From the NCBI GenBank assembly GCA_965216875.1, contig OZ244207.1:2144001-2208000 (forward strand): a stretch of DNA of 64,000 nt. Direction: 5' to 3'. The notes below the pieces were generated by a model, which ran no database searches, was not told where the DNA came from, and saw only the letters and a list, made by a program, of their open reading frames with translations. This document shows positions 38,556-63,873 of the stretch, in pieces. The position numbers and the translations under genes are program-made. Numbering within the stretch: position 1 is the first letter of the stretch; each line of letters starts with the position of its first letter. The stretch is from Rubripirellula sp. Its GTDB lineage: Bacteria; Planctomycetota; Planctomycetia; Pirellulales; Pirellulaceae.

Positions 38556-39890
38556 CTACGTGAGTTTCGTCTTACCCGGAACCGCGTGGCCCGAGTCGGG
38601 ACGGGCCGCCTTAACGTCGAATTCAGCAGGCCAAAGGTCCAGCTTCGACTCGTTGGTGGCAAAGTCCCAGGTGACCCGCTTTCCGGTGTAGGCGGCCATC
38701 CGGCCAAGCACCGCCGTCATCGAACTCTCTGCGGTCGCTTTGAGCTCGACGATCGGTTCGCCATTTCGAATCGAGGCGACTAAGTCCACATGTTCCTGTT
38801 CATAGGCCGCGCCGATATTGCCTTTCATCGACCAGGTTTCTGCACCCGATTTGCCGACGATCGAAGCGCCGCGGTTGGACCCATAAATCGTGCACGTTCC
38901 CTCGCTCCCGTAAACGACGTTGGAAACATCGCCTTGAGTTCCCGGGATCTGACGACACATGAACGAAACCGATCGATTGCCGGGATAGAGGTAGTCAACC
39001 GAAACGTTGTCCCACATTTCACTATCGTCTGGACGAGTGAAACGGCCACCGGAACCAAACGCTGACTCAGGTGGTCCGCCCATGATCCAGTTGATCGTGT
39101 CGATGTTGTGAACGGCTTGTTCGGCGATCTGGTCCCCCGAAAGCCAAACGAAGTGCATCCAGTTATGGATCTGGTACTCCGTGTCACTCATACCATCGCG
39201 ACGTGTCCGGTACCAAATTCCGGTCGAACAATAGCGAGCGGTCGCGCCGATGATGTCGCCAATCGCGCCATCATGGATCAAGCGAATCGCTTCCATGTAG
39301 TTGGTCTGACGCCGGTATTGAGTGCCGGTCACGATCGCGGTTTTGTTTGCGATCGCCTTGTCGTGAGCTTCCAAGCAGATTCGATAGCCTGCCGGATCAA
39401 CACAGGTCGGCTTCTCGGCAAACACATGCTTGCCCGCTTCGACGGCATCCAATACATAGCGTGGTCGAAATCCAGGCGGTGTCGCAAAGAGGACGAGGTC
39501 CACATCCGAATCATCGAGGATGCGTTTGTAGGCATCGATGCCACTGTGCATTTTGTTGTCGGGTACGTCAACTTTGTCTTCGTAGCCTTTCTTGAGTCGC
39601 TGTCGTAGCGAACCTAGTTTGCCTTCGTCGATGTCGGCCAACGCAACCAACTTCACATACTCGTTTGCGGTGAGTGTGTTGTTGAGCGCTCCGCCCCCAC
39701 GGCCACCGCAGCCCACCAAGGCGATTCGAACGAGATCGCGAGAGTCGTCTTGAGGTTCTGCGCCTCGTACAGCGCCTGTCAGCGCCGACGTCGTCGCCAA
39801 TCCAGCGGTTGCAGCAGAACTTGTCTGAATGAAGCGGCGTCGCGTTTGCGAAGGCGCGTGGGTGTCCGCATCGTGAGATCTGGGTTTCAT
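38556..39890 (-). CDS. Tat-exported Gfo/Idh/MocA oxidoreductase
   Basis: TRRRFIQ Tat motif, VGCGGRG, ATPPGFR, EKP, GTQYR and EQAVHNID. Confidence 0.92.
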   Translation of the reverse strand: MKPRSHDADTHAPSQTRRRFIQTSSAATAGLATTSALTGAVRGAEPQDDSRDLVRIALVGCGGRGGGALNNTLTANEYVKLVALADIDEGKLGSLRQRLKKGYEDKVDVPDNKMHSGIDAYKRILDDSDVDLVLFATPPGFRPRYVLDAVEAGKHVFAEKPTCVDPAGYRICLEAHDKAIANKTAIVTGTQYRRQTNYMEAIRLIHDGAIGDIIGATARYCSTGIWYRTRRDGMSDTEYQIHNWMHFVWLSGDQIAEQAVHNIDTINWIMGGPPESAFGSGGRFTRPDDSEMWDNVSVDYLYPGNRSVSFMCRQIPGTQGDVSNVVYGSEGTCTIYGSNRGASIVGKSGAETWSMKGNIGAAYEQEHVDLVASIRNGEPIVELKATAESSMTAVLGRMAAYTGKRVTWDFATNESKLDLWPAEFDVKAARPDSGHAVPGKTKLT

Positions 39891-40081
39891 AAGTGAACCT
39901 GAGTGGTCGCATGGGTGCGCAGCCAAGTCGACGAGAGCTGCTACACGGGGAGGGGGAAACAGGCAGGCGTTCGTGCTGACCACGAACGGGCTAAACATAT
40001 TAGCTGCTTCGACCGCGCCGTGGGCAACAAGTCGCAATCTTGGTGCCACCAGAGCAACTTCTCGCGCAGTTTGGACACTGC

Positions 40082-40295
40082 CCGTGAGCCGCTGGCCGTC
40101 AGGCCTCGGGCCCTTGCTGACGCGCGGCGAGTGTGATGGCGATTAAGGCCCGGCCGCTTACGCGATCGCGGCTCAGTTGGCTGAACTTGAGCAAGGATTC
40201 CTGATGCAGGAAGCGCATTTGCAATCCATCGCAATCGCGTGCTTTGCAATCACCCTCCCGCTTGCGGGAGGGTCGGACGCAAAGTCCGGGAAGGG
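40082..40295. repeat. REP-like elements (families C and D)
   Basis: ccgtgagccgctggccgtcaggcc...ggccgcttacgcgatcgcggctca and accctcccgcttgcgggagggtcgg. Confidence 0.7.
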
Positions 40296-40549
40296 AATGA
40301 TTTCCGTAAAGCGAGCTAGAGCACAGATGACGGCCGCCTTCAGTGGAAGCTTGGGAAGAACCGGCAAGATGGCGAGCCGGACCATGTTTCACTACCGCTT
40401 TGCCTAACAAAATCCTTTGTGAATCGTTGAGAGGGAGACGGAAATTTCGGCGCCAAAAAGGCTCTAAAAATCTGCCCCGTTTCCTAGACATCGCGTCTGT
40501 GCACTGTGTTACGATGACCTCGTACACCAACCCCCCATGGAGGTATCCA

Positions 40550-41893
40550 ATGCGATCGATCCTGTGTGTTGTGGCTTTTGTCTCTTCTGCAACCTTCTTT
40601 GCAGCGTCCACCGTCGACGCATCGTCACCCAAGAGCATTGACGAGCTTTCGACGCATCATCAATCGGCTGTCATCGAAATCGATGATGACAGCGACATGA
40701 AGATCAACGCCTTTTGCCTCGATGCAAAAGGGCACATTGTTGCCGCGGTTGGCAATGGTCCTGGCGGAGTACGAGTGGTTGACGATTCCGGCAAAGTATT
40801 GGCGACTTGGGATTTGGATATCAAACCCGAATCGATCAATGTGACCGACTCGGGCGACATTCTGGTCGGTGGCGAGGGAAAACTTTATCGCTTCAGCGAC
40901 AAAGGCGCACTTTTGCAAGAAGCGACGTCACCCCATGCGGAACGTTTGAAGAACAGCAAGGAAGCGCTTCGCAAAATGGCGATTCAAAACCTTGAACGTC
41001 GCCGTCATCCCTACCGGTCTCAGATTCAATCCTACGAATCGATCATCGCGCAACTCGAGGAACGAGCCAAAACCACCGAGTTGAACGCAAACGAAAAACA
41101 AACGCTCGAAATCTTGCCGAATACGCTCGAGCGAATCAAAGAGATGCAGAAAGCGCGTAAGGCAGCCGCTGGCGGCGACGAAGAAGAGGACGAAGAAAAA
41201 GGGCCGAGCGAACAAGAGATTGAATCGCAAATCGCGAGCCTGATGAAATCCAAAATGCGCATCTCGTCGATCAGCAGTAGTGGCGATAAGGTCTTCGTCA
41301 CAACGCGTGGCGTCGAAGGCTATGGCTATGACGTCTGGAAAACGGACACGAAATTCACAAGTTCGGAAGTGATCATCACGGGTCTCCGTGGATGCTGTGG
41401 ACAAATGGACGTTCAATGCTGCGAACAAGGCATTTTCGTCGCCGAGAATTCAGCGGATCGCGTGGTTCACTACGACTTTGACGGAAAGGAAATCATTCAT
41501 TGGGGAAAATCGGACCGCACGGGGATCGATGGCTTCGCGAGTTGTTGCAACCCAATGAACGTTTGCTTTGACCAGAAAGGCTATGTCTACACCGCCGAAG
41601 CAAGTGTCGGTCGAATCAAGCAATTTGATTCCGAGGGCAAGTTGATCGCCTACATCGGCGACGTCGATCTTGTCCCTGGATGCAAGAACGTGTCGATCGC
41701 GGTTTCGCCCGTTTCGGACAGCATCTACATGCTCGACCTGACACGAAACCACATCAAAATGATGAAACCCAAACCGCCCGAAGCCGAAGGCGATGATGAA
41801 GCTCCCGCTGAAGCCGCACCTGATGCGGCAGCGGAACAAGCTTCCATTACAAAGGCACTCCTGAGTCTGTTTACAAACGAACTCTCCAAGTAG
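40550..41893 (+). CDS. Secreted NHL-repeat beta-propeller protein with vicinal Cys motifs and helical insertion
   Basis: GGAGG RBS, signal peptide, NHL-like repeats; GCCG, QCCE, SCCNP and PGCK motifs. Confidence 0.85.
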   Translation: MRSILCVVAFVSSATFFAASTVDASSPKSIDELSTHHQSAVIEIDDDSDMKINAFCLDAKGHIVAAVGNGPGGVRVVDDSGKVLATWDLDIKPESINVTDSGDILVGGEGKLYRFSDKGALLQEATSPHAERLKNSKEALRKMAIQNLERRRHPYRSQIQSYESIIAQLEERAKTTELNANEKQTLEILPNTLERIKEMQKARKAAAGGDEEEDEEKGPSEQEIESQIASLMKSKMRISSISSSGDKVFVTTRGVEGYGYDVWKTDTKFTSSEVIITGLRGCCGQMDVQCCEQGIFVAENSADRVVHYDFDGKEIIHWGKSDRTGIDGFASCCNPMNVCFDQKGYVYTAEASVGRIKQFDSEGKLIAYIGDVDLVPGCKNVSIAVSPVSDSIYMLDLTRNHIKMMKPKPPEAEGDDEAPAEAAPDAAAEQASITKALLSLFTNELSK

Positions 41894-42081
41894 TGCCTGC
41901 CCAGAGCTCTTGTGAGCAACCATCTGTGGTATCGCCTTTAGGCGGATGAGCAGATTCCGTCCAAAGGCTGGTGCTGCAAACGATCGCCCGCCCTCCCTGC
42001 AACGGAGGGCGTTGAAATGAGAATGCCACGACATGCGTTGTCGTTGTTGTGCCAAGCATGACCCAGCGGAGAAAAAGAACC

Positions 42082-42948
42082 ATGTTAAAGATGCGATTCC
42101 TCGCCGGATTGTTTGTTCTTGTTGGATGCGGCGTCTTGAGTGCGGCCGAACCGCGGCCGACGCTGTCGCTGGTTGTCATGGATCCACTTGCGGCACCGCT
42201 GTCCTGCCCCTGTGTCGAGGGCTACGCGCAGCGGGACTACAAAGTTCTTGCAGAACACCTCAGCGAGAAGCTCGGACGAAAGGTCACGGTTCACTTTGGT
42301 GAGACGTTGGCAGCGGCCAAGAAAAAGGCTGGCGGAAAGGCTGACATCCTGATCGGCAAAAACTCAGTCGTCATCTTCGACGCCAAAGAAGAAGGGCTCT
42401 CGATTGAGGCCGTCGGACGGTTGACCGACAAGACAGGGTCGGTCGATCAATACGGAATGATTGTTGTCAACAAAGACGACCCGGCCGAAAAGGTCACGGA
42501 TCTGAATGGTTACACCGTCATTTTTGGTCCCGCCGAAGCGGACGAAAAGCATGCCGCCGCCTTGCAGCTGTTGGATGAGGCGGGGATCGTAATTCCCAAG
42601 GACCGCCGCAAAATGGATGATGCCTGCAGCGACGGCGCATGCAAGGTGATTGACCTTGGCCCAAAATCCAAAACGGCTGCGGTCATCAGCAGCTATGCCC
42701 AACCGTTGCTCGAAGGTTGCGGAACGATCAAGAAAGGCGACCTTCGTGTTGTTGGCAAAACGGCTCCGGTCCCGTTCATTACCGCATTTGTTTCCGCTGA
42801 CCTATCCGGCGAAGATCGTGAAGCGATCGAAACCGCATTGGCGGGCGTTGCCTTGGAGCCGACCGTGATCAGCGCGCTTGAGTCGCTGGTCGGGTTCCTG
42901 CCTGTTGATGCTTCCTCCAGCCAATCGCTGGTCTCAAAAAAAAAGTAG
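42082..42948 (+). CDS. PhnD/SsuA-like periplasmic substrate-binding protein, Cys-rich
   Basis: Signal peptide; YKVLAEHLSEKLGRKV, ADILIG, VNKDDPAEKVTDLNG and LRVVGKT; SCPC, CSDGAC and EGCG; ends KKK-stop on an A9 run. Confidence 0.85.
   Translation: MLKMRFLAGLFVLVGCGVLSAAEPRPTLSLVVMDPLAAPLSCPCVEGYAQRDYKVLAEHLSEKLGRKVTVHFGETLAAAKKKAGGKADILIGKNSVVIFDAKEEGLSIEAVGRLTDKTGSVDQYGMIVVNKDDPAEKVTDLNGYTVIFGPAEADEKHAAALQLLDEAGIVIPKDRRKMDDACSDGACKVIDLGPKSKTAAVISSYAQPLLEGCGTIKKGDLRVVGKTAPVPFITAFVSADLSGEDREAIETALAGVALEPTVISALESLVGFLPVDASSSQSLVSKKK
42936..42945 (+). other. Candidate -1 frameshift / transcriptional slippage site (A9G; A-AAA-AAG)
   Basis: TCA AAA AAA AAG TAG in frame 0; the -1 frame reads AAA GTA GCC ACT... 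into the PQQ-like domain. Confidence 0.7.
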
Positions 42949-44105
42949 CCACTGAACCTTCGGGATGGCCTGGATGGCGGGGTCGTCATCGTGATGGCCG
43001 CACCGCTTGGCTACCTGATTCTCTGCCAAAATCTCCCAACATCGTTTGGGAGATTCCGCTGACCGACAATGGTCTTGGCGGCATTGCTGCCATCGACGAG
43101 GTTGTGATCTTTGGCGACCGCGACTTGCCCGACTTTCACGATGTGTTTCGCTGTGTCGAAGCCGACTCGGGTGAAACCCGCTGGGAAGTTCCGCGTCTGG
43201 CCATTGCGGGGCTCGACTACGGCAATTCCCCGCGCGCTACGCCGCTGATTGTTGGCGACAACGTGATTTGCCAAGGCGCACATGGCCATCTGCTGTGCAT
43301 CGAAATCGCCACGGGCCGCGTCGTTTGGGAAAAAAACTTTCGTGATGACTTTCCAATCAACGAAGAGCTTCCCTGGGGTTATTGTGGCTCGCCGCTCTTG
43401 GTCGACGGCAAAATCATCGTCGCTCCCGGGTCAAGCGATGCATCGCTTCTCGCTCTCGATCCCCATTCGGGAGAGATCGTTTGGCAGAGCCCCGGAATCT
43501 TGCCCTCCTACGGCTCGCTGAATGCAGCGACGCTTGGTGGCGTGCTGCAAATCGTCGGTCACGACGCAAAGACAATCGGTGGCTGGGATGTAAAGACTGG
43601 CGAACGCCTGTGGACGATCCTTCCGGCATCCGATGGCGACTTTAACGTACCGACGCCTATCATCCTCGACGGCAAAATGTTCGTTGTCACCGAGAACAAT
43701 GGAGCACGGCTGTTTGAATTTGGCGCGGGTGGCCAAATCAAACCGGATCCCATCGCCGTGAATCCCAAGCTCCGCTCCGACATGACCACGCCCGTTGTCG
43801 TTGGCAACCACCTCTACTGCGTCAAGGGATTCCTCTATTGCCTGGACATTGACGATGATCTTTCCGAGCAATGGCGTTTGCGCGACAAGAGCCTGGGAGA
43901 CTACGCGTCGCTGATCAGTTCATCGGATCACGTTTTGGTCATGGGCAAGGGTGAGTTGCTTCTGTTCGATGCCGATGGCACCAAGAAAGTGAAATCGCGG
44001 CTACGCGTTTTTGACCAGCGCAGCGACCACTATGCTCATCCGGCAATTGTGGGCGATCGACTTTACCTACGCGGCGAGAACCGCTTGGTTTGTTTGCAGC
44101 TTTGA
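42945..44105 (+). CDS. PQQ-binding-like beta-propeller (BamB-like) domain, apparently reached by -1 frameshift
   Basis: Coding frame begins VATEPSGWPGWRGRHRDG...IVWE, the canonical N-terminus of this family. The first ATG/GTG/TTG is only at 43104. Propeller repeats GETRWE, GRVVWE, GEIVWQ and GERLWT. Confidence 0.88.
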   Translation, partial: VATEPSGWPGWRGRHRDGRTAWLPDSLPKSPNIVWEIPLTDNGLGGIAAIDEVVIFGDRDLPDFHDVFRCVEADSGETRWEVPRLAIAGLDYGNSPRATPLIVGDNVICQGAHGHLLCIEIATGRVVWEKNFRDDFPINEELPWGYCGSPLLVDGKIIVAPGSSDASLLALDPHSGEIVWQSPGILPSYGSLNAATLGGVLQIVGHDAKTIGGWDVKTGERLWTILPASDGDFNVPTPIILDGKMFVVTENNGARLFEFGAGGQIKPDPIAVNPKLRSDMTTPVVVGNHLYCVKGFLYCLDIDDDLSEQWRLRDKSLGDYASLISSSDHVLVMGKGELLLFDADGTKKVKSRLRVFDQRSDHYAHPAIVGDRLYLRGENRLVCLQL

Positions 44106-44178
44106 TGCGCAACAAAAGAGCCAACGAGTTGAAAACCCGCTGGCTCGACGTTGGATTCAAATTCGAAGTGATTCGAAA

Positions 44179-44496
44179 CTATTCGCCTTCTGGCTTGTCA
44201 CCACCGGCGGCTTCCGCTTCATCGCCACCAGTAGCCTCTGCTTCGTCAGCGCCAGCCGATGCGTCTGCATCGTCGTCGCCTTCAGCGTGATCGTCGGCGC
44301 CATCTTCATCATGGTCGTGACCATCTTCGTCATGATCGCCGTCTTCGTCGTGATCGTGGCCATCGCCGTCAGCCGTTTCAGCTGTGTCGGCACTATCAGT
44401 CGTTGTGGTGGTGGATGATTTGTCACAACCCACTGCGAAAAGCACGATGCTAAAAAGTGCTGCGAACAGAGAGGTGTGACTGAGGAAACGTTTCAT
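44179..44496 (-). CDS. Acidic His/Asp-rich small lipoprotein
   Basis: MKRFLSH...LFAVGC lipobox followed by DGHDHDEDGDHDEDGHDHDEDG repeats. Confidence 0.8.
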   Translation of the reverse strand: MKRFLSHTSLFAALFSIVLFAVGCDKSSTTTTTDSADTAETADGDGHDHDEDGDHDEDGHDHDEDGADDHAEGDDDADASAGADEAEATGGDEAEAAGGDKPEGE

Positions 44497-44698
44497 CGAT
44501 TCCGCCCATAAGATCGAGTTAGATTGAATGCCGGCCAAGCCCACGCCTTAACCGGTCCTTAACATTAAGTTGAATCCATTTTGCCCTCTTGTGCTATGTG
44601 CCAAACGTGGCGAGCGTCAGTTTTTTGAATAAGTTCGCGTTCGTTCACAATGGCGAGTTTAGGAAGCATCGCGACAATCAGGTTGTTGGTACGAGTAG

Positions 44699-45415
44699 AT
44701 GAGCCAAAATCCATACCAAGCACCGACGGAGACCGTCGAGGAATCCGAGGAGGTCGATTGGTCGCAGGCGACCGAGCTTCCGAAACTCCTCTTTGGCTTG
44801 CAGATGATTCAATGGGCTTGGAATAGCACTGCCGTGGTGCTGGGCATCCTGATCCTTGGCCCAATGCTGGGCAGCTTTCACTTCACCCAATGGCTGGCCG
44901 GCGGCGTGACGGCCCTTTGCGGATTGCTGGTTGCCTGCTCACCGTTTGCCTTGACAATGGCTGGCAATCGATTCGGAAACCAAAAACATGCGGTCATGGC
45001 TTGTATCGCGGGGATCGCTTCATTGGGATTGGCCATCGCGATCTGGGTATTCTTTGATGTTCAACGAAGCGAAATTGGCTTCTTGCAGAATGGTGTCTTT
45101 CTAGCGTTCACCTTCCTGATCGGTGCCGCCTGCTCCATCGTCCAATACCAGCGAGAGTTTTGCTCGTTCGTCGGTTTCGTGGACATTGGTCGCCGTTGCA
45201 AGCGTCTGATTTGGTTCATTATTGCCTTTTGGATCACTGGCAGCGTTTCGCTCTACGGAGTTCAGTGGATGCCAAGATGGCTTGCGCCATGGCTCGTCGT
45301 TGGCTGTGCTTTTTCAGGAGTCTTCTTCTTGGTCGAATTTGGCGGGCTGCCCGGAGTCATCGTCAAAGCTGCGAAACGGCGTCAACGCATGGGGAATCGT
45401 CTCTACGAGATTTGA
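44699..45415 (+). CDS. Hypothetical multi-TM membrane protein (NPYxxP N-terminus), paralogue 1
   Basis: About six TM segments; alignable with 47173-47865. Confidence 0.8.
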   Translation: MSQNPYQAPTETVEESEEVDWSQATELPKLLFGLQMIQWAWNSTAVVLGILILGPMLGSFHFTQWLAGGVTALCGLLVACSPFALTMAGNRFGNQKHAVMACIAGIASLGLAIAIWVFFDVQRSEIGFLQNGVFLAFTFLIGAACSIVQYQREFCSFVGFVDIGRRCKRLIWFIIAFWITGSVSLYGVQWMPRWLAPWLVVGCAFSGVFFLVEFGGLPGVIVKAAKRRQRMGNRLYEI

Positions 45416-61452: not shown

Positions 61453-63873
61453 TTATGGCTTTCCGACCAGGAAACTCCACATTCGCTTGGACTCAACGCG
61501 CCAGCTGATCCAATCACTTCCAGTTTGCGACTGTGCCGTCGTTACCCGATGCCCGCCGTCCTTGAGCATTTTTGCCGCCGCCTGCGATTGCCCGGCCATG
61601 TCCCAGTTCTCTGACGGATTGCGAAAATCGTAGTCACTCCACTGGACCAAGACGTCGCAACGGTCCTTGGGGATATTCGCGAGCTGGTTGATCACTGGAT
61701 GCAACATCTCAAACGCAAAGGGCGAGAAACAGCCGATCTTCCCGACTTGATCACTCGACGGAAGCGTCGCCATCAACGACAGCGTCGCTCCAAACCCACC
61801 ACTCATACTTGCGCGGTCCACCCGATTCTTCGAAATCCGATAGTCCTTTTCGATCTTCGGCAACAACTCTCCGGCAAACATCTCGGCGTAACCGGCCGGA
61901 GGGATCATCGGATAGAACCTGTAGCCAACAAAAACGACGACCGCAGGACGAATCTGCTTGGCCTGGATCAAATGATCGACGACAGACACCTGATGCCCCG
62001 ATTCGATCGCAACATCGCCGTCATGCACATACACAACCGGATACTCGTCGTCCGATTCGTCATAACCAGGCGGAAGGTAGACGGACACGCCCACGTTGCG
62101 GTTCATTTTCTCGCTCTTCAGGTCCCACTTCTCGAGACGCCCGGCAAGCTTTTGTCTCTGTGAATCAACAAACTGTTCGTCGCTCGCAACAACATTCCCT
62201 TTATCGAACCACGACATCATCAAAACGTCCGCTGGCCCCAAGAAATTCGGCTCCATCTCTCCGGTAAGGATCGAGCTCTTCACCTGATTCGGGTTCGTCG
62301 GGTCAATTTGCGGCTTGTAGTCTGCGTAGAAGGTGTAGGACAACCGTGTGCTCTTGGGCACTTCGATTCCGAAGTAGAAGAGGTTGGTCCCCTCAACACG
62401 ATTCATCGCCCGTTCCTGACGCACCCCAAACCACTCGCACCCTAATGCTACGTCTTGGTGATCACCTTGGAAAACGAAGTGCACATAGTCGCCCTCAATC
62501 AAAGGGGTCTGTTGGTTGGCGAGGAAAGCGTCAATCAGCTCCTGTTTGTCCTCTGCGGCTTCGACCTTCTTGATGAAAGCGGCGAACTTGGGTCCAAGTA
62601 CAGAGTCATTGGCAGCGACTTTCGATTCGCCACCACCGGGCGCAACGTCGACACGCGCGATCGCACCGAGACTGCGCAAGTAGACCGAGCGCCCTGCAAT
62701 CGTCGGGAGCGCCCAGAGCAATCCATCCGAATCATCACCTTTGGTTTCAAACACTTCGGTTGCCGCAACTTCAGCAAAACCATCCTCATTGACGTCGCCG
62801 ATATGCAACGAACCGTCCATCGTTGCGGAAACCAAACGCCCAGCCATGGTTGCAAGAAAGCCGTTTCCTGGTTTCCGAGTTCGCCACAACCGATCTCCGG
62901 TCTCTGGATCAACGGCAACGAGAAAACGGGACGAATACGAACAGAGCAGGCCGCCGGAAACGACAGGCACGCAATAGGTGTTGCGAATATCACGGGTCGA
63001 CCATTTTTCCGTGTAACCGTCACCTGCAACGGAATAGATTGTCGAACCATCTTCGCGATCGTTCAAAAAGACCTCGTTCTTGGAAACGGGTACCGGGATC
63101 GCGACCCAACCACCGATTCCCTCAGCACCCCCATGCGATTGTTGCCAAAGGATCTTCCCTGCCTTGTGATCAATCGCGATGGTTTGCGTGTTGCCGGTAG
63201 CAAGCAGGCCCGGCCTTCCATCGAACTCGTACGGAATGACGGTTTGAAACGCCGCCGTGTCGCTTCCAAGTTTCCATTTCAGATCGCCGCTACTGGCATC
63301 GTAGGCAACAATCGCAGCTTCAGGTGCACCCGCCGCAACCACCACCATCCCGTCATGAACGATCGGCGATGCCCCGAACCCGTAGAAGTTCGGCTGCGAA
63401 CCCAATTCTTTCTGTAAGTTGTGATGCCACACATCGGCACCGTCACCGAGAGAAAACGCGTTCAAGTCACCAAAGGGCGAAAGATGGAAAACGAGATCTC
63501 CGCTAACGGCGGGGGTCGCTATTGGTCCATCAAATGAACCATTGGCACCCTTCATCATCTTGCCTGTCTTTGCACGCCAGACTTCGTCGCCTGTCTTTGC
63601 ATCGAGCGCTACGACGTATTCAGTTTCGGAGGGCACATCGGCCATTGCCGAGATGACCTTGTCGCCCGCTGTGACCACACCCGAATAGCCGCTCCCAAAA
63701 TCACGTTTCCAGACGACCTTCAGCTCGAGCGGCCCCGAGCCAAGTGCGGAATCGGTGACCGACGCAGAACCATCAAACCTTGGCCCGCGAATCGACTGCC
63801 ATTCCTCTCCAGAGCACTGCGCCGATACGAATGACGCAACCGAAAGAACCGTCAACAGAATCTTCTTGTTCAT
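61453..63873 (-). CDS. Secreted PQQ-like beta-propeller fused to an enterochelin-esterase-like alpha/beta domain
   Basis: Signal peptide, WQSIRGPRFDG, propeller repeats; C-terminal VYLPPGYD, YPVVYVHDG and ELLPKIE. Confidence 0.88.
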   Translation of the reverse strand: MNKKILLTVLSVASFVSAQCSGEEWQSIRGPRFDGSASVTDSALGSGPLELKVVWKRDFGSGYSGVVTAGDKVISAMADVPSETEYVVALDAKTGDEVWRAKTGKMMKGANGSFDGPIATPAVSGDLVFHLSPFGDLNAFSLGDGADVWHHNLQKELGSQPNFYGFGASPIVHDGMVVVAAGAPEAAIVAYDASSGDLKWKLGSDTAAFQTVIPYEFDGRPGLLATGNTQTIAIDHKAGKILWQQSHGGAEGIGGWVAIPVPVSKNEVFLNDREDGSTIYSVAGDGYTEKWSTRDIRNTYCVPVVSGGLLCSYSSRFLVAVDPETGDRLWRTRKPGNGFLATMAGRLVSATMDGSLHIGDVNEDGFAEVAATEVFETKGDDSDGLLWALPTIAGRSVYLRSLGAIARVDVAPGGGESKVAANDSVLGPKFAAFIKKVEAAEDKQELIDAFLANQQTPLIEGDYVHFVFQGDHQDVALGCEWFGVRQERAMNRVEGTNLFYFGIEVPKSTRLSYTFYADYKPQIDPTNPNQVKSSILTGEMEPNFLGPADVLMMSWFDKGNVVASDEQFVDSQRQKLAGRLEKWDLKSEKMNRNVGVSVYLPPGYDESDDEYPVVYVHDGDVAIESGHQVSVVDHLIQAKQIRPAVVVFVGYRFYPMIPPAGYAEMFAGELLPKIEKDYRISKNRVDRASMSGGFGATLSLMATLPSSDQVGKIGCFSPFAFEMLHPVINQLANIPKDRCDVLVQWSDYDFRNPSENWDMAGQSQAAAKMLKDGGHRVTTAQSQTGSDWISWRVESKRMWSFLVGKP

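Follow-up and report, generated by a model that had tools for sequence, protein, structure and literature searches.

An A-run between a periplasmic binding protein and a beta-propeller in planctomycetes: a conserved recoding site that probably works by transcriptional slippage

Introduction

How can a protein domain stay under selection when its reading frame has neither a common start codon near its beginning nor an export signal? The question is raised by a 64,000-nucleotide stretch of Rubripirellula sp. DNA (GenBank assembly GCA_965216875.1, contig OZ244207.1, positions 2,144,001 to 2,208,000 of the forward strand), which we call the window. Here the gene of a substrate-binding protein (SBP) ends in a run of nine adenines (A9) beside its stop codon, and a beta-propeller follows in the -1 frame. 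Comparison with homologous loci makes us nearly certain that this is a real and conserved site of programmed recoding. From the pattern of runs, stops and frames at these loci, we consider it likely that one gene is expressed through programmed transcriptional slippage on A9.

In the mechanism that we propose, RNA polymerase would realign on A9 and produce a mixture of mRNAs. The unslipped message would yield a free periplasmic SBP of 288 amino acids, and a message with one extra A would yield a 674 amino acid SBP-propeller fusion exported via the same signal peptide. A message with one A fewer or two more would meet a stop in the third frame and give a further, near-identical SBP. The expected junction peptide of the fusion (...KKKVATEPSGWPGWR) is the same whether the polymerase slips or the ribosome shifts; the slipping machine is more probably the polymerase. 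By analogy, the fusion would be the minority product: slippage yields of about 20-50% are given for tssM, chlD and Thermus dnaX (PMC3711429, PMC5009743, PMC4256274).

Results

Gene layout at the site

A preliminary description, made from the letters of the window, had placed an A-AAA-AAG heptamer directly before the stop, a -1-frame stop at 42906 and no common start codon before 43104, and all of this is confirmed in the sequence. On the + strand, A9 (42936-42944) is followed by G at 42945 and TAG at 42946-42948. The open reading frame (ORF) from the ATG at 42082 encodes 288 amino acids and ends in SKKK. After its stop at 42906, the -1 frame is open across A9 up to 44105 (386 codons counted from 42945). 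It contains no ATG, GTG or TTG between 42906 and 43104, where the first common start, a GTG, is found, and from 42966 it encodes the conserved N-terminal Trp motif of the propeller family. The features discussed in this paper are as follows.

40550..41893, + strand: gene of an NHL/SGL-type propeller that has five invariant Cys and begins with a hydrophobic leader; conserved module partner
42082..42948, + strand: zero-frame ORF, SBP of 288 amino acids with a PhnD/AioX-type fold and four invariant Cys; short product
42082..42147, + strand: probable Sec signal peptide common to both products (by inspection; split SBPs have a hydrophobic segment)
42936..42944, + strand: putative A9 slippage site (A8-A10 in 117 of 118 split loci)
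42946..42948, + strand: zero-frame stop TAG, ends the short product
42953..42955, + strand: third-frame stop TGA, would end the products of transcripts with one A fewer or two more
42945..44105, + strand: -1 frame, BamB/PQQ-like beta-propeller of 386 codons without start or leader; C-terminal half of the proposed 674 amino acid fusion
42960..43017, + strand: hairpin predicted in this copy only

The SBP matches the Pfam domain Phosphonate-bd (E 1.8e-21) and the propeller PQQ_2 (E 3.3e-19). A larger stand-alone protein at 61453-63873 (- strand), with which the propeller had been compared, opens with the same propeller family; both the quoted motif and its own hydrophobic leader are present. Only 19 runs of at least nine A occur in the 8.26-Mb genome, counting both strands. 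A misassembled A10 had been named as a possible source of the layout. Logan contigs of two DNA runs, at depths of 897 and 109, contain no A10: they keep A9 and have no indel relative to the window. Two further runs, taken to be RNA, gave no match to the window, an outcome that is uninformative about expression. These contigs drop rare variants, and because they may come from the genome's own source, their agreement is not independent.

Conservation across homologous loci

How widespread is this layout? We retrieved 206 SBP loci (21+80+80+25) and removed 2 without an SBP match, 14 without a propeller match and 21 exact duplicates. This leaves 169 distinct loci, among which near-identical ones remain; detailed statistics (n = 109) refer to the split loci among the first 151. 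The propeller lies in the -1 frame in 118 loci (split loci), would need a +1 shift in 3 (L044, L082, L116) and is fused in frame in 48; orthologues thus keep the split site and are not all plain fusions, the outcome that would have pointed to a strain-specific mutation. The run in the 118 split loci is A9 in 90, A8 in 16, A10 in 11 and A6 in one (L261, where it follows GGG). The split layout is seen at 45-68% SBP identity. No run longer than A7 was found in 176,273 nucleotides of homologous SBP and propeller coding sequence outside the linker. Most of the loci without a propeller match lie at contig ends, and the run is still visible in L127, L129, L143 and L157. The SBP of L177, also at a contig end, closes with a stop that no run precedes; in L267, a distant homologue, the next 1.4 kb hold no propeller.

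By record title, split copies occur in Pirellulaceae, Planctomycetaceae and Gemmataceae. Five records titled "Candidatus Kuenenia" (L038, L067, L081, L090, L101) nest in the tree among other planctomycete metagenome-assembled genomes (MAGs); we left them out of the range estimate because the titles may be wrong. In an even sample of the phylum, the SBP-propeller family was found in 24 of 401 genomes, and its distribution is therefore patchy. On a FastTree phylogeny of 125 of the 151 loci (26 with short, broken or cut frames were left out), the run state needs 5 changes (at least 3), compared with about 30 for shuffled labels. As the tree is unrooted, it does not establish whether the run was gained or lost.

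Natural variants cover the whole range of states: split and reversed layouts, a fusion locked by the insertion of one base, and a decayed run. Four in-frame A10 fusions (L031, L057, L250 and L253, the last in a single-contig genome) have a stop directly behind the run in the minus-one-A frame. L249 is fused and has the run of L246, broken by one inserted T; this pair suggests a change from split to fused. In L252, which is also fused, the run is shortened and has no adjacent stop. The genus g175 has mixed states.

The propeller frame is selected but has no start of its own

Does the -1 frame encode a working protein? Of the complete propeller frames, 88 of 91 are at least 340 amino acids long. 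The ratio of nonsynonymous to synonymous substitution rates is 0.09-0.24 for the propeller (10 measurable of 15 hand-picked pairs) and 0.06-0.24 for the SBP (12 pairs); the propeller is under purifying selection, like the SBP. None of the 109 split loci has an ATG in the segment from the run to the first conserved Trp; 92 have no common start there, and 17 have a GTG or TTG. A hydrophobic N-terminal segment is found in 99 of 105 split SBPs, compared with none of 92 propeller frames (5' of the first Trp). At 13 loci the beginning of the run is overlapped by a -1-frame stop, so that the frame can change only within the run.

There are 545 longer homologues, and all 120 of the matches listed carry both Pfam domains. 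We used one natural in-frame homologue (P0003) as a stand-in for the window's own fusion in structure prediction. AlphaFold2 (AF2) predicts two domains (pLDDT 91.3, pTM 0.67), and the sole internal disorder is a linker, residues 286-295, at KKK. The layout is conserved, the propeller is selected, and its frame has no ATG or signal peptide; an assembly error, a strain mutation and an independent propeller start are therefore all unlikely. The proposal that one gene gives the 288 amino acid SBP and the 674 amino acid fusion with one signal peptide is strongly supported by this comparative evidence.

Run, stops and RNA structure

Which machine slips? In 75 of 109 loci the first A of the run sits at codon position three, where A is otherwise rare in these genes (1729 of 15650 four-fold sites). 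It is the length of the run rather than a heptamer that is conserved, and a heptamer needs only six A, which favours the polymerase. Stops lie close behind the run in both off frames. The zero frame is closed within 30 nucleotides in 108 of 109 split loci (median 1 nucleotide), and the third frame in 86 of 109, compared with 206 of 855 coding control positions (24%) and 5 of 37 homologues that are fused and lack a run. With amino acids fixed, synonymous randomisation gives an expectation of 53.5 +/- 3.5 third-frame closures; after thinning of near-copies, the contrast is 55 of 71 against 35.5 +/- 2.9, still inflated by the kinship of the loci. Third-frame closure favours the polymerase because a pure -1 shift never enters the third frame.

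Long A and T runs are avoided in the genome's other coding sequence. Among 3322 ORFs of at least 300 amino acids, a set that does not include the shorter SBP ORF itself, A9 occurs 0 times (21.4 expected), T9 0 times (10.8 expected) and T8 twice (48.6 expected). A run of about nine, a conserved layout, avoidance of such runs elsewhere and stops in both off frames are four of the five features listed for the slippage class, and all four are seen here; the fifth would be mRNA of mixed run length made from a uniform template. A run and an ORF layout conserved in non-identical homologues is also the criterion for slippage given in PMC1088944. A T precedes the run in 11 of 15 A8 loci; either a weak hybrid or plain descent could account for it, and we do not use it as evidence.

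Three RNA pairings downstream of the site had been pointed out. All three exist, but neither their position nor their strength is conserved among split loci, and we reject them as stimulators. In the window, the minimum-free-energy hairpin (-33.4 kcal/mol, z -2.47, matched by 5 of 200 shuffles) begins at 42960, 15 nucleotides after the heptamer; the UUCG pairing has 2 base pairs only, and the GTAGCCA pairing begins inside the site and the stop codon. Hairpins 5-10 nucleotides downstream average -10.2 kcal/mol in split loci, -8.3 in internal controls and -13.9 in fused genes without a run, where folding at the corresponding place is no weaker. Upstream structure is the same as in controls (z -0.38 vs -0.35), and a search of 39500-45000 against Rfam at gathering score gave no matches. 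An upstream motif resembling a Shine-Dalgarno (SD) sequence is found in 11 of 109 loci, no more than the background of 0.11.

For tRNA-Lys, ARAGORN finds 3 genes with anticodon CTT and 4 with TTT in the genome. Several of the genome's tRNA genes lie in dense clusters (G000:C1 about 593,500-656,300, entries 12-52; G000:C1 denotes positions in this genome), with two of the three tRNA-Lys(CTT) genes inside. ARAGORN also calls one tRNA with a CTA anticodon and one with TCA somewhere in the genome.

Alternative explanations

The same two proteins would result if the ribosome made a programmed -1 shift as in E. coli dnaX or IS3 elements, acting on A_AAA_AAG or on tandem A_AAA_AAA/AAN and aided by the adjacent stop or a 3' hairpin. 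We hold this to be improbable, although several observations weigh for it and against slippage by the polymerase. The window copy has A_AAA_AAG in frame, as do 72 of 109 split loci, and of the 15 loci among these 109 that have A8, 14 retain it. In the ORFs of the genome this heptamer stands at 0.51 of expectation, compared with 1.21 without the preceding A (about 2.4-fold avoidance beyond the control; for A_AAA_AAC the values are 0.70 and 0.67), which suggests that it is shift-prone here. The split locus L261 has A6 only, and a net -1 change is required in 118 of 121 split loci. Downstream folding is slightly above that of controls (mean z -1.01 vs -0.35) and of fused genes (z -0.72 vs -0.23, p 0.006). 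Any run of at least eight A contains some A_AAA_AAN, and sequence alone can never exclude the ribosome; the support for slippage is, moreover, a comparison of sequences from related loci, many of them MAG or metagenome contigs, in which the reversed and +1 layouts may stem from homopolymer misassembly or recent mutation. Most of the 48 fused loci lack any run, and the short form is dispensable in some lineages. On the other side, 37 of 109 split loci have no in-frame A_AAA_AAG: 22 hold only A_AAA_AAA, 11 the AAC variant and 4 the AAT variant, and AAC variants gave 1-3% in one context (PMC6787027). tRNA-Lys(CTT) genes are present, SD motifs are not enriched, and the 3' hairpins are weaker than in fused genes without a run. 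Ribosomal shifting also leaves unexplained why the first three A's are conserved and why the third frame is closed. Of the two mechanisms in the preliminary description, A9 slippage, there given as the bracketed option, fits better than the shift on A-AAA-AAG placed first. Both could also operate at a single site, yielding the same protein, with some added ribosomal shifting where an in-frame A_AAA_AAG is present.

The remaining explanations lie much further from the evidence. If the ribosome slid along successive AAA codons and entered several frames, this would account for a long run with stops in both off frames, but we think it very unlikely: the minimum in the E. coli PURE system is given as 11 A (PMC4363877), and no locus here exceeds A10. 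Phase variation, in which slipped-strand mispairing of the DNA toggles the fusion on (A10) or off (A9) in subpopulations without any recoding, draws on the length differences among relatives (the four in-frame A10 fusions, the three +1 loci and the mixed genus g175). Yet the "off" layout prevails by 118 to 4 while purifying selection on the propeller equals that on the SBP, and the read-derived contigs contain no length variant, though they would drop rare ones; this, too, seems to us a very slim prospect. If there were two genes, with the propeller translated from its own non-ATG start or by re-initiation, the GTG or TTG codons of 17 loci might serve, but the other 92 loci offer no common start, and none of 92 propeller frames has a hydrophobic leader. 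The run itself would be left without explanation, the 13 loci whose -1-frame stop overlaps its start would be hard to accommodate, and the longer homologues carry both domains; such an arrangement is scarcely to be expected. Homopolymers are error-prone and a few homologues differ in length, but A9 in the read-derived contigs and the complete propeller frames speak against an assembly error or a strain-specific pseudogene, and the conservation of the layout in 118 loci already refutes both.

Further A-run sites in the genome and the order

Are there other genes of this kind? A paralogous NHL-SBP-propeller module at G000:C1:5238264 (L183:1743-5943) has A10 in the -1 layout, with only A_AAA_AAA in frame. 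In dnaX (G000:C1:4930645, minus strand; L270), an in-frame A10 is followed by C, and both off frames are closed within 12 nucleotides. Among the best 30 of 60 dnaX matches in the order (L214-L243), 25 have A9-A10 in the linker; in 9 of these the run is followed by C or T, and in 21 both off frames are closed within 30 nucleotides. This pattern points to a Thermus-type expression of gamma and tau from dnaX in this order, and we found no report of such a site in planctomycetes in the literature searched. At G000:C1:542504 (L182:4005-4014), a ThuA-domain ORF is joined by A10-G-TAA to a 1219-codon GDSL/DUF7133/HEAT/cytochrome c (PVC-type heme) frame. Of the 30 ThuA loci that match best, 10 are plain fusions, 17 have no such gene behind ThuA, and 3 are split at A10. 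The shift needed is -1 in this genome and in L201 but +1 in L199, which is from the same genus as L201; a single G next to the run sets L199 apart and may be an error. The split of the ThuA/PVC heme protein seems to have arisen independently in two genera, in one case with reversed polarity.

We rejected as a recoding site the A9 at G000:C1:899437 (minus strand; L269:997-2208), where the next ORF has its own ATG at the end of the run. A lipoprotein-like ORF ends there just after A9, the last A of which opens the ATG of a 68 amino acid ORF, with a similar ORF of 79 amino acids in tandem. At G000:C1:419116, A9 lies within the first codons of a gene that we take to be polynucleotide phosphorylase; regulatory slippage is possible there.

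The SBP-propeller family, its paralogue, the ThuA/PVC heme family and dnaX invite a wider reading, conceivable although at present we lean against it: polymerase slippage on A9-A10 might be a general and repeatedly re-invented device of planctomycetes for making periplasmic proteins with and without a C-terminal domain, with lineages tuning or locking the ratio by single-base changes. If true, it would be a bacterial counterpart of alternative splicing, and many "split" or "truncated" planctomycete genes would be mis-annotated single genes.

Proteins and function

What might the two products do? The AF2 model of the SBP (pLDDT 94.7) has Foldseek matches to XAC2383, PtxB, PhnD, ArrX and AioX at 13-18% identity (E about 1e-16, TM about 0.7). 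The score against Pfam PF12974 is 77 bits (cut-off 27), in agreement with a type II binding-protein fold, and that against NCBIfam PhnD is 27.9 bits, far below the cut-off of 261. The STSS motif of PtxB, a Ser/Thr oxyanion motif, aligns to acidic residues in the SBP, and four Cys are invariant. No ABC permease or ATPase appears as a conserved neighbour among the top neighbour clusters. For the propeller, the top Foldseek matches are BamB (12-18% identity); it scores 38.4 bits against NCBIfam BamB (cut-off 285), and its frame has no lipoprotein leader.

The upstream propeller is NHL-like by hidden Markov model and Atlas. A clustered homologue is found in 124 of 151 loci, a count limited by flank length, and C257, C258, C307, C308 and C353 are invariant (84 rows). 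A complex prediction for the SBP with the NHL propeller scored 0.49 (best control 0.00; contact agreement between runs of 82% or more; partner pLDDT 88 or higher). Among 157 solved pairs, 116 reached the score mark, as did 2 of 215 mismatched ones; of these, only 18 solved pairs, but both mismatches, lay at 0.60 or below. The model lends weak support to an SBP-NHL complex.

The ligand of the SBP is probably a thiol-liganded metal or metalloid rather than a phosphonate, although its Cys could equally form disulfides. A tentative and rather doubtful idea is that the locus encodes a three-part periplasmic module, completed by the Cys-rich NHL propeller, for handling or sensing thiol metals or metalloids, in which excess free SBP would shuttle ligand to the propeller-tethered copy and the A-run would set the ratio of free to tethered forms. 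As 48 loci are fused, the free form would tune the module and not be universally essential.

A small His/Asp-rich, lipoprotein-like ORF at 44179-44544 (- strand) is convergent on the propeller gene. It has weak matches, below cut-off, to ZrgA and a Ni/Co efflux model, and was not seen as a conserved neighbour.

Discussion

Well-supported recoding in non-mobile bacterial genes is rare, and the case described here spans several planctomycete families. Gene callers drop the N-terminus and the export signal of the propeller, and databases appear to split a working gene. The natural variants make two questions testable in culturable strains: why slippage is retained instead of a simple fusion, and how polymerase and ribosome would divide the work at an A-rich site. 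We found no report of the SBP-propeller site in the literature searched, although it may be listed in supplements or subscription papers. Two recoding surveys cover 108 and 1106 genomes, and just 2 planctomycetes are in the larger one (PMC3711429, PMC1088944). There was no match in two of the three supplementary files of PMC3711429, no mention of planctomycetes or Pirellula in the accessible text of the review PMC5009743, and no relevant match in bioRxiv 2025.10.02.679949.

How does the site compare with known systems? The two halves share their folds with PhnD, PtxB, AioX, ArrX and XAC2383 and with BamB, at identities of at most 19% and with scores below the NCBIfam cut-offs. In E. coli copA/CopZ, an N-terminal ligand-binding domain is likewise made both free and fused; that case is ribosomal and cytoplasmic, uses another heptamer and has the fusion as default. 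The in-frame A_AAA_AAG of the E. coli dnaX -1 shift (PMC6787027) occurs in this copy and in 72 of 109 homologues, and is absent from the other 37. Unlike E. coli dnaX, the SBP-propeller loci have no conserved SD and no clearly conserved stem-loop, and nine A are kept rather than six. The E. coli type also relies on a single tRNA-Lys(UUU) that reads AAG weakly, whereas tRNA-Lys(CTT) genes are present here. The poly-A shift of the Mg/Co-chelatase gene chlD is, as here, in a non-mobile gene and in the -1 direction, and its efficiency is described as growing with run length, to 40% at A9; chlD encodes a cytoplasmic enzyme subunit and belongs to other phyla (PMC3711429).

Closer parallels are found in tssM and Thermus dnaX. 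Citrobacter rodentium tssM1 (A11) and Yersinia pseudotuberculosis tssM3 (A9) are also chromosomal envelope genes in which an A-run before a stop yields a short and a full-length form; the two polarities are found in different species, and the ratio matters in C. rodentium (PMC4256274). The authors describe frameshifting in those two tssM genes only (PMC4256274), while in the SBP-propeller family the split layout is the majority state over more than 100 loci. Unlike tssM, this is a soluble family with a signal peptide, and the stop usually lies within one codon. Thermus thermophilus dnaX shares the run of A9-10, near stops in both off frames and two Lys tRNAs (PMC5009743, PMC3711429), and tRNA-Lys(CTT) is offered as a possible reason why Thermus uses polymerase slippage (PMC5009743). 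In Thermus the default product is long and slippage truncates it (PMC5009743, PMC3711429), whereas here the default is usually short and slippage would append a domain. The SBP-propeller site would thus be a new and unusually widespread example of the slippage class represented by Thermus dnaX and tssM.

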